The notes beneath the pieces are model-generated. The model worked only from the letters and a program-made list of their open reading frames with translations. It was not told the origin of the DNA and did not search any database. Below are positions 59,270 to 63,204 of a DNA stretch of 64,000 nt, piece by piece. Numbering within the stretch: the first letter of the stretch is position 1; the number at the start of each line of letters is the position of its first letter. This DNA comes from an uncultured Kiritimatiellota bacterium (lineage in GTDB: Bacteria; Verrucomicrobiota; Kiritimatiellia; RFP12; UBA1067), in NCBI GenBank assembly GCA_934643865.1, contig CAKUCX010000008.1, positions 2,125 to 66,124 on the forward strand. The letters are read 5' to 3'. The position numbers were made by a program, and so were the translations under genes.

Positions 59270-59336
59270 CATCCCTTCGCTGGAAGATAGGGCGAAAATG
59301 AAGAAATGAAGAAATCGGCAAGCCGCCGCCGCGCGC

Positions 59337-60932
59337 CTATTCCGCAATCTCCAGGACGACGTGGGGCGTCGCCGTGGGCGGCGCCTTCTCAAGTACCGCC
59401 CCCGGAATGACGAGCGCCCCCTTCGCGTCGCGCGCGCAGAGCGCCGTCACATCGCGGCGCGTCCCCTCCTCCAGCAGAGACCGCGCCCAGATGCGCGCGC
59501 CGACGGGCACGCCGCCCGTCAGCGTGACCGAGCGGAACGTTCCGAAGAGCCCGAGCGGCCGCCCCGGCTCGAGCGCCGTGTCGAGCGCGACGTCGGCGGG
59601 GCAGACGACGGAACGCCGCCCGTCCAGGACGCGCGGCAGGAACGCAAGCGCCACGGCGCCGTTGGGGTAGCGCGCGCCGCACACGAACGGCCGGGGGCCG
59701 TCCGCGCGGACGGCGGGCAGGGGCAGCCCCCGCGTCACGACGGCGGGCGCGCGCTGGACAACCGTCTTCCGCGCGGCGGCGGCATACCAGGAACAGTCGT
59801 TCGTCGAATACGTCCAGCGGTCCTCCAGAACCTCCGCGCTCGTGCGCGTCACCGCCTCCGTGCCGTGGCCGAACGGCGCGGCCAGCTTCTGCCAGGCAAG
59901 CGCCGTGTAGACGTCGTTCGTGCGGCGCACGCCGCGCCACCAGTCCGTCGACATCGCGCCCAGGACGTGCCCCAGCCCCACGGCGATGAGCGGCTCGTCC
60001 TCGACGTTGAGGAGGACCGGCAGCTTCGCCGCCTCGGCGATCGGCGAATAGTACGCGCAGCGCTCCAGCGTCGTCACATGGTCGAAGGGGCCGATGACGT
60101 CGTAGGTGCGGAAGACGTCCGAGGCCGCGAGGACCTCCGCCACCTCCCCGCGCCGACCCTCCCAGAGCGGATCCCCGACGAAGCGGCCCGTCCCCGTGAC
60201 GGAGCCCGTCTCCTTGTCAATGGAAAGGCCGTTGAGCGGCCCGCCGGGGAGCCGGCAGTGCTCCAGCCGCAGACCGGGGTAAACGCGGTCGCGCACCTCG
60301 GTGACGAGGCGGCGGAAGGCCGGCTCGCCCGCACCATTGCGGAAGCCCCAGTCGATCTTCCAGTAGTCGACGCCCGCCTCCCGGCAGATCGCCATCCGCT
60401 CGGCGAGCACGCGGCGCGCCGCCTCGTCCGCGAGCCGCCCCTTCGCCCCCGGCATGTCGCCGTGGACGTGGCAGGGCACCCACACGGCAAGCCCCAGCCA
60501 GCCGCGCGCCTTGACGGCGTCGCTGAACGCCTTCAGGCGCCCGGCCGGCGTCCCGCGAAACGACGGGAAGCGCTTCGCGTCCGGCACAAGCGAACCGCGC
60601 AGCGAGAGGTCGGGGCCCGCGCTCGCCGTTCCCTCCGGGATGTCCCACCCCGCGTCCACGAGCAGATACAGCCCCGCGCGGACCTGCGGGTACATCACGT
60701 TCGCCCAGCCCGTCCCGTCGAACAGGACGCGCTCGTTGAGGTTGTCGCGCTGACTCTGCGTCCCCGCGTCGATCGGGCAGCGGATCTTCCCCGCCTTGAG
60801 GTTGTCCGCCAGCGTCGCGCCCTGCGTCGCCCACGTACACCAGTAGTTGGGAACCGGCCGAAGCTCCGTCGCACCCCCCATCCAAGTTGCCATGAACACG
60901 GCCACCACAACTGTCATTGCCTTGATTTGCAT
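59337..60932 (-). CDS. secreted alpha-galactosidase-like (clan GH-D, GH27/36-like) glycoside hydrolase
   Basis: Start reset to ATG 60932 (MQIKAMTVVVAVFMATWMGG). ...YWCTWATQG...LYLLVDAGWD... and ...GVDYWKIDWG... resemble melibiase-type barrels. The family assignment is tentative. Confidence 0.6.
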   Translation of the reverse strand: MQIKAMTVVVAVFMATWMGGATELRPVPNYWCTWATQGATLADNLKAGKIRCPIDAGTQSQRDNLNERVLFDGTGWANVMYPQVRAGLYLLVDAGWDIPEGTASAGPDLSLRGSLVPDAKRFPSFRGTPAGRLKAFSDAVKARGWLGLAVWVPCHVHGDMPGAKGRLADEAARRVLAERMAICREAGVDYWKIDWGFRNGAGEPAFRRLVTEVRDRVYPGLRLEHCRLPGGPLNGLSIDKETGSVTGTGRFVGDPLWEGRRGEVAEVLAASDVFRTYDVIGPFDHVTTLERCAYYSPIAEAAKLPVLLNVEDEPLIAVGLGHVLGAMSTDWWRGVRRTNDVYTALAWQKLAAPFGHGTEAVTRTSAEVLEDRWTYSTNDCSWYAAAARKTVVQRAPAVVTRGLPLPAVRADGPRPFVCGARYPNGAVALAFLPRVLDGRRSVVCPADVALDTALEPGRPLGLFGTFRSVTLTGGVPVGARIWARSLLEEGTRRDVTALCARDAKGALVIPGAVLEKAPPTATPHVVLEIAE

Positions 60933-60938
60933 GCACGC

Positions 60939-60947
60939 AGTATAGCA
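60939..60947 (-). promoter_or_regulatory. extended -10 box TGCTATACT placed 7 nt from ATG 60932 (leaderless arrangement)
   Basis: This is the reverse complement of agtatagca. The canonical 7-nt distance from the hexamer puts the TSS on the A of the ATG. Confidence 0.5.
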
Positions 60948-60987
60948 AACCTCTCGCGGCCCGTACACAGCGAGGCACGGATACAGT

Positions 60988-61043
60988 GTCATGCGTCACT
61001 GAACAGCGAGGTATGGAAACTCCGCTGTTCAGTGACGCATGAC
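60988..61043. repeat. perfect 21-bp inverted repeat with a 14-nt loop
   Basis: gtcatgcgtcactgaacagcg (60988-61008) pairs with cgctgttcagtgacgcatgac (61023-61043) with no mismatch. It lies between divergent gene starts. Confidence 0.9.
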
Positions 61044-61142
61044 CATTTTCGGGGCATGTTCGGGATATTTTCGCCTGTTGCTTCTCGGGGAAGTCCCGGC
61101 CCCCATAGCGCGGCGGCGGCTCTTGTGGAGGCCAGGGCGGTG

Positions 61143-61151
61143 TGCTATACT
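61143..61151 (+). promoter_or_regulatory. extended -10 box TGCTATACT for the integrase-like gene
   Basis: It lies 46 nt upstream of ATG 61197. Confidence 0.55.
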
Positions 61152-61196: not shown

Positions 61197-62312
61197 ATGC
61201 CCGGAACGACATCTCCAGACACCCGCCCTTCCACGCGGATTCCGTTGACGCGGAGCCAGCTGAAGGCGGTTTTCGACGCCGCACGCCACGACGCCCTTCT
61301 CTACCCGCTTCTCGTCGCAGCCGCCTACACCGGCCTGCGCCTCGGCGATCTCTGCAACCTCAAATGGGCCGCCGTCGATCTTGCGGCGGGGCTCGTCACC
61401 GTTCCCGCCACGACCGCACGCCAGTTCGCCACGCTCCCCATCCTCCCCCCGCTTCGCGCCGTCCTCGAAGAACAGCGCGCCCGTTGCGACACGTCTCGCG
61501 TTTTCGTCTTCCCGGAAGCGGCCCGGCGCTACAACTACAAAAACGGCCATGGCATCCACTCGCTTCGCGGTACCCTTCTCGTCGGGGCGAAGGTCTTCAT
61601 CGGCCAGGCTCTCAACGCCCCGCCCCCTTCTGCCCGGCTGGATGCGGCGACATCCCTCCCGTCCCTCCCGGATGTCATGGCCCACATCCAGAAAGCACGG
61701 TTCGCCGCCGCCAAGGCCGCCCGCATGGCCACGACCTACCGCCTGTTCCTGGAAGGCCGCAGCTACGCCCAGATCGCCGCCGTCACGGGACGCGGCAAAG
61801 GACAGTGTTCGGAAGACCTGCACGCCGTCGAAACCCTCGTTGGACGCCGCCTCCGCCCCGGCCGTGTGCGCCATGCACGGAACGCCAGGGCTGCGGCCGA
61901 CCTCATCCAGCTGACGCGCCGCGCCTCCGGCGGCGCGTCCCGGCAGACGAGCCTCTACGGCTGGCGCTCCTTCCGCCCGGCGTTCTGCCTTCTGGCGCTG
62001 GAGGCGGGCATCCCCACCGGGACCATCGAGCAGGTCGTCGGCCGGGCGACGATGGCCCAGACCCTCAAGGACCTCCACGACGCAAAGGACGCCGACACGG
62101 CGGGCGGGTTCGCCTCGCGCGCCCTTGCGCTGGCGCGCGACGTGATCACGCCCAAACAGACGGCCCTCGTCAACGCCGTCCTCCACGCGGCGGGCATCGA
62201 GGCCGAGGAAGCCGACCCGAAGCGCGCGCTCTCCCTTCTCGGCACGGCGGTCGTCAACAAGACGCGCGCCCGCATCGCCGCCGCCCTCCGATCCGCCGGG
62301 ATCAAGACCTAA
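61197..62312 (+). CDS. tyrosine-recombinase (phage integrase family)-like protein, apparently degenerate, 371 aa
   Basis: Start reset to ATG 61197 (MPGTTSPD...); the upstream 612 ORF codons are antisense to the GH gene. A box I-like ...VAAAYTGLRLGDLCNLKWAAVDL..GLVTVP... is present. Box II-like elements are IHSLRG and ...YGWRSFRPAFCLLALEAGIP..IEQVVGRAT.... No Tyr follows these. Confidence 0.55.
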   Translation: MPGTTSPDTRPSTRIPLTRSQLKAVFDAARHDALLYPLLVAAAYTGLRLGDLCNLKWAAVDLAAGLVTVPATTARQFATLPILPPLRAVLEEQRARCDTSRVFVFPEAARRYNYKNGHGIHSLRGTLLVGAKVFIGQALNAPPPSARLDAATSLPSLPDVMAHIQKARFAAAKAARMATTYRLFLEGRSYAQIAAVTGRGKGQCSEDLHAVETLVGRRLRPGRVRHARNARAAADLIQLTRRASGGASRQTSLYGWRSFRPAFCLLALEAGIPTGTIEQVVGRATMAQTLKDLHDAKDADTAGGFASRALALARDVITPKQTALVNAVLHAAGIEAEEADPKRALSLLGTAVVNKTRARIAAALRSAGIKT

Positions 62313-63043
62313 CGGCCAACGCGGCCGCGCCTCACGCGCCTCAGCCACCGCAGCCAGGCGGCCGGGCGGCGGTGGACGAGCAGCGAAACGGCCGCGAGCG
62401 TCAGGGGAACGATTCCAAACGCCGCCGCGCCCGCGCGTTGCAGGAGAAGCGCCCCGGCAACGACGCCCGCGACAAAGCACACGATGACGAGCGCATAGTG
62501 CCGGGCCTTCGCGAGCTCGTTCGGATCTGTCCGGCGCAGCCACAGGTAGGCCGCGTCCGCACCGCTCCGCAGGTTGCCCGTACACATCGTGGACGCGAAC
62601 GGAAGCCCCCGCACCCGGCGGAACGCCTGCACCTGCATGGCGCAGACGAACGAGATCAACGCCGCCACCGCGAAGTCGAAGGGGCCGGCGGGCATCCAGA
62701 CGACGGCGAGCAGCAGCGCGGCCTCAATCCACAAGACGACCTGATGCCACCCGAAGCGGCGGGCGTGCGCGCAGCGCGCGTGGACGGCGTTCGCGAACAT
62801 GACCCCGGCCCCGTAGGCGACGACGGCGCAGACGCCATGCGCCGCCCCCCACGCATCGCCCGCCGCCAGCCGAAGGCCGATGATCACCAGATTGCCGGTG
62901 ACCGCGTTCGCGAACACGCCGCCCCGGAAGAGGTAGGCGTAGACATCCGTGAACCCGCCCGCCGCGCTGAGCAGGCAGGCCGCCAGCAGCCGCTCCTCTC
63001 GCAACGGCATCTGCGACGCGCCCTGTAAGAGTCTCTTCGCCAT
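62309..63043 (-). CDS. YoaK/DUF1275 family membrane protein
   Basis: ...AAGGFTDVYAYLFRGGVFANAVTGNLV... is present and the protein is polytopic. The start was chosen at ATG 63043 (MAKRLL) because the -10 box lies at 63055-63063. In-frame ATGs at 63064 and 63121 are alternatives. Confidence 0.7.
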   Translation of the reverse strand: MAKRLLQGASQMPLREERLLAACLLSAAGGFTDVYAYLFRGGVFANAVTGNLVIIGLRLAAGDAWGAAHGVCAVVAYGAGVMFANAVHARCAHARRFGWHQVVLWIEAALLLAVVWMPAGPFDFAVAALISFVCAMQVQAFRRVRGLPFASTMCTGNLRSGADAAYLWLRRTDPNELAKARHYALVIVCFVAGVVAGALLLQRAGAAAFGIVPLTLAAVSLLVHRRPAAWLRWLRRVRRGRVGR

Positions 63044-63054
63044 GGCCTGGTCAC

Positions 63055-63063
63055 AGTATACCA
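63055..63063 (-). promoter_or_regulatory. extended -10 box TGGTATACT
   Basis: The reverse complement of agtatacca lies 12 nt upstream of ATG 63043, giving a near-leaderless transcript. Confidence 0.45.
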
Positions 63064-63204
63064 TAAGCACCCGCTGCCGGGCATCCGCGTCCGACTTGCA
63101 CCGAGGCCGGTGCGCGCCCATACGGACGGAGACCGCCGCGATTTAACCCAATCCTCACGGAACGCATATCGGCCTCTAACGAAGAAAGCGGATACTCTGC
63201 GGCG

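Follow-up and report, generated by a model that had tools for sequence, protein, structure and literature searches.

The perfect inverted repeat at positions 60988-61043 of the window, by which we mean the whole 64-kb stretch of DNA that was analysed, is very probably a terminal-repeat remnant of an IS66-family element, as judged by comparison with IS copies in this and other genomes. The arms of the repeat are IS tips, the junction between them lies where it was predicted, and the same product is found elsewhere. For annotation, this would make a striking palindrome beside an integrase-like gene a piece of transposon debris rather than a recombination site or an operator. The features of the locus are the following.

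59331-60964, minus strand: gene cassette comprising a secreted protein of unknown family (CDS 59337-60932) and its own promoter
60939-60947, minus strand: extended -10 box TGCTATACT of the left gene, kept in genome G001
60967-60984, plus strand: partial direct copy (15/18) of hairpin nt 16-33 (ACAGCGAGGCACGGATAC), repeat family D3
60988-61043, no strand: probable 56-bp IS66-family (ISBst12-like) palindromic remnant, composed of nt 1-37 of one IS end and inverted nt 19-1 of the other end
60988-61008, plus strand: left arm, an IS terminal inverted repeat tip that begins GTCATG, where all other family copies have GTAATG
61009-61022, plus strand: loop, subterminal IS nt 22-35 (AGGTATGGAAACTC) by comparison with the IS ends
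61023-61043, minus strand: right arm, an inverted IS terminal-repeat tip, with C at tip position 3 in all strains seen
61123-61151, plus strand: promoter of the integrase-like gene, with -35 box TTGTGG (61123-61128), a 17-nt spacer and extended -10 box TGCTATACT (61143-61151)
61197-62312, plus strand: integrase-like gene (371 aa), of which only the N-terminal part of the Phage_integrase catalytic domain was matched

The positions and the pairing are exactly those claimed by an earlier sequence-only reading of this DNA. In the window repeat search, the arms at 60988-61008 (GTCATGCGTCACTGAACAGCG) and 61023-61043 (CGCTGTTCAGTGACGCATGAC) were complementary at 21 of 21 positions and enclosed a 14-nt loop. 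The divergent intergenic setting had also been described correctly, with ATG 60932 (minus) and ATG 61197 (plus) flanking the repeat, no ORF terminating at it, and the repeat lying upstream of both -10 boxes (60939-60947, minus; 61143-61151, plus). The 56-bp unit itself is non-coding and holds no ORF. Single-strand folding of 60960-61070 gave -55.7 kcal/mol, compared with -30.1 +/- 3.3 kcal/mol for the shuffles (z = -7.7). No other match to the arm was found in the 64-kb window with up to 3 mismatches allowed, and none was found in 100 dinucleotide shuffles; the palindrome is far beyond chance. The same intergenic sequence was recovered in six independent metagenome assemblies, which excludes an assembly artefact.

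The arm was searched for in the whole assembly (G000, 3.3 Mb, 122 contigs) with up to 2 mismatches. It was found at eight further sites with 1-2 mismatches of 21, always as a single arm, and each of these copies forms the sharp outer edge of a longer repeat that runs inward for 157-720 nt. Two facing ends, C51:10705 and C51:12705, bound a complete element of 2,001 bp that is flanked by the 8-bp target duplication GCTTTTTT; its ends are alike over about 75-93 nt and its terminal repeats start GTAATGCGTCACTGAACAGCG. The 463-aa ORF of this element matches Pfam DDE_Tnp_IS66 (2e-24) and zf-IS66 as well as NCBIfam transpos_IS66 (2.3e-52), and it is the terminal repeat of this element that the window arms reproduce with 1-2 mismatches per 21 nt. 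The loop of the window repeat is nearest to the GGGTATGGAAAC variant of the G000 IS ends, seen on C27 and C69. A second complete copy of 2,001 bp, with the duplication AAATTTTC, was located at G001:C221:390-2390. The distribution of the tip is patchy (14 of the 301 genomes sampled in the taxonomic order), and some genomes carry many copies at contig ends.

IS66-family termini begin 5'-GTAA according to the ISfinder description. The anatomy of the parent, as predicted from its ORFs and ends, is that of the single-ORF ISBst12 group of the family, which has one transposase ORF and no tnpA/tnpB accessory genes. No TnpB_IS66 (IS66 Orf2) gene was found in the 2,001-bp element, which contains the transposase and one small DUF6788 ORF only. 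The 109-aa ORF upstream of the transposase in the C51:10705-12705 element matched DUF6788 (1.1e-8) and not the usual TnpA/TnpB. A described member of the ISBst12 group, ISDge4 from Deinococcus geothermalis, encodes a transposase of 449 aa and has tips that read GTAAC/GTGAC and a direct repeat of 8 bp (PMC12898284). The parent resembles the group and ISDge4 in its one DDE_Tnp_IS66/zf-IS66 transposase of ~460 aa, its GTAA-starting repeats and its 8-bp duplication, but differs in the unusual length of its repeats (about 75-93 bp) and in the extra small DUF6788 ORF upstream. The window element differs from the group in being geneless, with two tips and 14 nt only.

Only one intact IS copy is present in the G000 assembly. 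Six solo IS ends were recorded (C27:23391, C35:1850, C45:21992, C57:5119, C68:14126 and C69:12615), which keep 157-720 nt and are cut internally at a point that differs from one end to the next; in some, a frameshifted piece of the transposase C-terminus is left.

Read from left to right, the window element consists of 37 nt of an IS end (the tip, then AGGTATGGAAACTCCG) that pass directly into the inverted tip. Collinearity with the IS ends holds as far as ...GAAACTCCG, where the switch to the inverted tip takes place, and an alignment of six hairpins with both IS ends placed the switch at the same point in all six. Each long terminal repeat carries ACTCCG at nt 32-37. This stretch is quasi-palindromic and the repeats are inverted, so that ACCCCG is read at the other end in the same orientation. 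The two ends thus share a 6-bp imperfect direct repeat, AC(T/C)CCG. When a deletion between the AC[TC]CCG repeats was simulated on two full-length copies (G000 and G001), the product was 56 bp long and identical to the hairpin consensus, with ...AAACTCCGCTG... or ...AAACCCCGCTG... as the predicted junction depending on the repeat kept. Both variants occur naturally: the CTCCG junction in the window, G018, G006, L060 and G178, and the CCCCG junction in G001. Junctions at short direct repeats within inverted ends, with both resolutions possible, are what characterises nearly precise excision.

Outside G000, one hairpin each was found in G001, G018, G006, G178 and the metagenome contig L060, at non-orthologous intergenic sites.

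G001:C104 (URIT01000104.1, a human-gut MAG): hairpin with orthologous copies in two metagenome contigs
G018:C99: hairpin
G006:C234: degenerate hairpin
G178:C48: hairpin in another genus
L060 (55%-GC metagenome contig): hairpin with a perfect 8-bp duplication, GAACCACC

A target duplication is absent in four of these five. The neighbours of the hairpins elsewhere are autotransporter-like and beta-galactosidase genes, GDPD and hexokinase genes, genes for an unknown secreted protein and a PFOR-like protein, and a PMT_2 gene; the hairpin in G001 sits between convergent gene ends. At the G001:C104 locus, L061 and L062 differ from L059 by a change of the left tip from GTAATG to AAAATG with an unmatched right arm, which shows that symmetry is not always maintained. 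The 62-bp hairpin of L066 (G178:C48:4081-4698) is preceded, 556 nt upstream, by a tip-like end, GTAAGGCGTCACTGAACAGCG, that has the same orientation, and the resulting 618-bp span is flanked by ACTGAAAG and CCTGAAAT (6/8). This span may be a larger non-autonomous derivative with the hairpin as its right end.

Two other origins were considered and rejected. A CRISPR repeat, suggested by an arm and loop that end in ...GGAAAC, is contradicted by copies that are dispersed and single and that run on into a transposase gene. Fold-back priming, or palindrome extension from one IS end, does not agree with a palindrome that stops exactly at the tip and with a right flank without IS interior.

The proposed route to the window element starts from a full-length 2,001-bp IS66-family copy at the site, whose long terminal repeats would pair as a stem. 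Replication slippage across this stem would then delete the 1,945-bp interior between the AC(T/C)CCG repeats, and the product left would be the 56 bp of tip (21), 14-nt loop and inverted tip (21). Slippage between short direct repeats, helped by pairing of long inverted ends, is the basis of nearly precise excision. In the case of Tn10, Foster et al. are said to have reported in 1981 that nearly precise excision leaves a 50-bp palindrome, by deletion between short direct repeats in the inverted IS10 ends. The Tn10 remnant is likewise a palindrome of both tips with its junction at short direct repeats, and the same product recurs. It belongs to another transposon family and keeps its 9-bp target duplication, whereas the window element has none, and the formation proposed for the remnant in the present IS family is deduced from sequences. 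The wider yield for transposon biology is modest: IS66/ISBst12 elements with long terminal repeats would collapse to a predictable 56-bp palindrome, of which both junctions are natural.

In-situ collapse from a full-length copy is probably what happened at this site, and we hold it to be a reasonably likely history; transposition of a 56-bp unit into the site as a MITE retains an appreciable but smaller chance. The preference for collapse rests on the occurrence of one copy per genome, on the presence of both junction variants and on loops that resemble the IS variants of each host.

The fullest form of the MITE account, in which a unit of 56 bp arose a single time, was moved in trans by an IS66-family transposase as an active or recently active minimal MITE and was inserted here as a whole, is possible though rather doubtful. 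It would explain intact outward-facing transposon tips, hairpins at differing loci in six genomes or contigs (one host having 55% GC) and the perfect 8-bp duplication at one copy, and an apparently intact full-length transposase gene is available in G000. Nevertheless, a single hairpin per genome means that there was no amplification, both junction variants and the likeness of the loops to each host's own IS variants suggest recurrent local formation, and in-situ collapse of a full IS would account equally well for the lone target duplication; the window copy, moreover, has no duplication and carries GTCA tips. Bacterial MITEs are thought to be derived from IS by internal deletion (PMC3189936). 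Being short (56 bp), non-coding and bounded by the terminal repeats of its parental IS, the hairpin conforms to the description of a MITE; the amplification and duplication that belong to the class are missing, with one hairpin each in G000, G001, G018, G006 and G178 and a duplication at one of the six copies. It resembles Correia/NEMIS, MITEPsy1 and MITEAba12 in being short, non-coding and intergenic and in having the terminal repeats of a resident IS, but with 56 bp it is among the very smallest, it has one copy per genome rather than being amplified, and it usually has no duplication. No IS66-derived MITE was found described in the literature searched, a search that was not exhaustive.

The sequence-only reading had listed a MITE/REP-type element among its candidates. 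This is close to the terminal-repeat remnant of an IS66-family element to which the evidence points, while the notion of a generic high-copy REP fails on the one hairpin per genome. The many dispersed identical copies that a genome-wide search might have turned up are not there: G000 has a single hairpin, and IS ends account for the remaining eight copies of the arm. REPs exist in many copies and depend for their mobility on RAYT (IS200/IS605-like) transposases. The hairpin shares with REPs and REPINs an extragenic palindrome able to form a hairpin, but it is single-copy, where a genome with such elements has tens to hundreds of near-identical extragenic copies, and its arms consist of IS66 tips.

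Returning to in-situ collapse, the window copy departs from it in one respect. No 8-bp target duplication was found at or near this copy, where GATACAGT and CATTTTCG match at 2 of 8 positions, which is chance level. The missing duplication is at odds with both an in-situ scar and a simple MITE insertion, and a later rearrangement of the flank is assumed. If the parent or the remnant lay at an IS-associated rearrangement junction, this would account for the missing duplication as well as for a synteny break 24 nt to the left. The targets of the intact copies (AAATTTTC, GCTTTTTT) are AT-rich, and the right flank CATTTTCG resembles them, which lends slight support. Neither a full-length IS nor an empty site at the exact position was found in the 16 assemblies with the locus, in relatives, by exact-protein look-ups of the integrase-like gene and three strain variants, or in genome and metagenome pattern scans, and a more distant orthologous locus was not found among the relatives searched.

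The synteny break is the edge of the left gene cassette. The cassette (59331-60964) has a 97.7% identical counterpart at G001:C8:32921-34554 whose flanks are unrelated on either side, and the boundaries of the cassette lie a few nt outside the CDS and the promoter; homology to G001 stops at 60964, so that the breakpoint is 24 nt from the hairpin. Within the window's own species, the cassette of other strains is as different from that of the window as the G001 cassette is. This divergence and the unrelated flanks indicate that the cassette was relocated within a recombining population, with the hairpin at the junction. The strain alignment of the cassette is a recombination mosaic, and G001, G014 and G006 also differ from one another in the DNA upstream of rpoB. 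No IS-like repeat was found at the other cassette boundary (59331). In the 23 nt between breakpoint and hairpin, most of the space is filled by the 15/18 copy of hairpin nt 16-33 (shuffle test p about 0.014), which is not accounted for by the IS-collapse model. The protein encoded in the cassette had no match in Pfam, NCBIfam or PDB sequences, and the label 'GH-D-like' given to it in the sequence-only reading is without such a match. The hairpin marks a rearrangement-prone spot in an uncultured human-gut lineage.

Both arms of the window copy begin GTCATG, while GTAATG is found in all IS copies and in all other hairpins. The GTCA tips and the missing target duplication suggest that the window copy is now probably immobile. 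Whether excision scar or minimal MITE, the remnant is probably inert, and from its GTCA tips and its place upstream of both promoters, outside both predicted transcripts, we infer no designed role for the neighbours.

How the tips came to deviate can be followed among strains, for which 16 assemblies from several studies carry the locus; all 16 have the hairpin. L073-L076 combine a left tip that still reads GTAATG with a right tip of the C variant, giving arms that match at 20 of 21 positions, and the window and the other strains have C on both. The GTCA deviation is secondary, as L073-L076 show. Since A stands at tip position 3 in all other family members, the most parsimonious order would have the right arm mutate before the left, the second change restoring the perfect palindrome. 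At loop position 1, the ancestral G is retained in L081 and L082. G001 was rejected as a root for the strain polymorphism, its cassette being no more distant than those of conspecific strains in what is a mosaic alignment.

Template-switch ('quasipalindrome') mutation yields palindrome-restoring changes. We would attribute the perfect symmetry to such palindrome-templated mutation and not to selection, with less certainty than the IS origin itself, as one event fits either. The symmetric A-to-C change could instead reflect selection for hairpin pairing. Variation amounts to 2 sites in the 56 nt of the hairpin and to about 4 in 225 in the rest of the spacer; that the hairpin does not vary less than the spacer argues against strong constraint. 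In either case, the locus offers a natural example of a palindrome-restoring substitution among strains. The A-to-C change in the left arm also creates an in-frame minus-strand ATG at 60990-60992, inside the hairpin. Gene callers in other assemblies then start the left ORF there, which gives 551 aa instead of 530/531 aa (530 in L073). The 551-aa start is probably a spurious artefact of the tip mutation, as it lies upstream of the promoter and -10 box.

A bolder proposal, that an ISBst12-type transposase accepts the 56-bp unit as a minimal functional substrate, the unit being as such the smallest IS66-derived MITE, or else that the unit is an exapted hairpin under selection, seems to us improbable on the sequences compared. 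If either branch held, the minimal cis needs of a poorly understood IS family would come down to a 21-bp tip and 16 subterminal nt. Under the exaptation branch, the hairpin would be an insulator or a transposase-titrating site between two divergent promoters.

The arrangement of these promoters bears on the functional readings. The same extended -10 box, TGCTATACT, is common to both divergent genes. For the left gene a leaderless mRNA is implied, since the -10 hexamer stops 7 nt short of the A of ATG 60932. Relative to either promoter the hairpin is upstream, 20 nt past the nominal -35 of the left gene and 79 nt past the -35 of the right gene, and it is therefore outside both predicted transcripts. 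No acceptable outward-facing -35/-10 pair was seen in the tip by inspection, and none was called in the promoter scan.

Exaptation as a terminator or insulator for antisense or read-through transcripts, or as a small structured RNA, is quite unlikely. In favour of exaptation, the stem is highly stable and is followed on the plus strand by a short T-run (CATTTTC), and the hairpin in G001, placed between convergent gene ends, could terminate both of its neighbours. In the window, on the other hand, no gene ends at the hairpin and it falls outside the predicted transcripts, its contexts in other genomes are heterogeneous, and the terminator scan does not call it. The loop of 14 nt, with 4 T after the stem on the plus strand and none on the minus strand, does not make an intrinsic terminator. 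That a terminator role was not to be expected here had been foreseen in the sequence-only reading, and the negative scan and the lack of a gene end bear this out. No Rfam family was reached at threshold: the best match in the Rfam 15 search was RF02592, a generic hairpin match with 32.8 bits against a gathering score of 47.

Still less likely is a binding, recombination or operator site of the adjacent integrase-like protein that serves the divergent pair. The position between two divergent promoters, 154 nt upstream of the integrase-like ATG, makes such a site attractive at first sight, as do the perfect palindrome and the palindrome-restoring substitution among strains. The homologues of the integrase-like gene on G001:C59 and G014:C80 (81% nt identity) speak against it: their promoter, CTTGTGGAG...TGCTATACTGG, is kept while the hairpin is absent and the upstream DNA is unrelated. 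An operator for the divergent promoters, another earlier suggestion, loses its ground with this observation. A recombination or binding site for the integrase-like protein fares no better, since homologues do without the hairpin and the five other hairpins lie beside unrelated genes, none of them near an integrase; the co-occurrence with a recombinase gene across relatives that would mark a tyrosine-recombinase att site is not seen. Furthermore, the arms have been shown to be IS66 tips, their format of 21 bp each around a 14-nt spacer is unlike that of tyrosine-recombinase core sites, the protein matches the N-terminal part only of the catalytic domain, and within the species the hairpin (2 sites in 56 nt) is not less variable than the rest of the spacer. 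The comparison gives no support to a link between the hairpin and the integrase-like gene. Weakest of all, a chance palindrome or an assembly artefact can be dismissed, given that not one match arose in 100 shuffles, that independent assemblies from several samples have the same sequence, and that the hairpin family is found in other genomes.

Two further observations concern the right side of the locus. A 27-nt motif, CCTGTTGCTTCTCGGGGAAGTCCCGGC, at 61074-61100 of the window recurs with 26 of 27 matches at G000:C113:2783-2809 (minus), and these are its only two copies in the genome. It includes CTTC-N5-GAAG, and both copies lie ~40 nt upstream of a TGnTATACT -10 box, that of the integrase-like gene here and that of an rpiB-like gene on C113; the motif may be the site of a shared regulator. 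In L081 and L082, whose integrase-like gene is 99.3% identical, the downstream DUF1275 gene (window 62309-63121) is replaced by a DUF4832 gene, which indicates that the right side of the locus is also variable.
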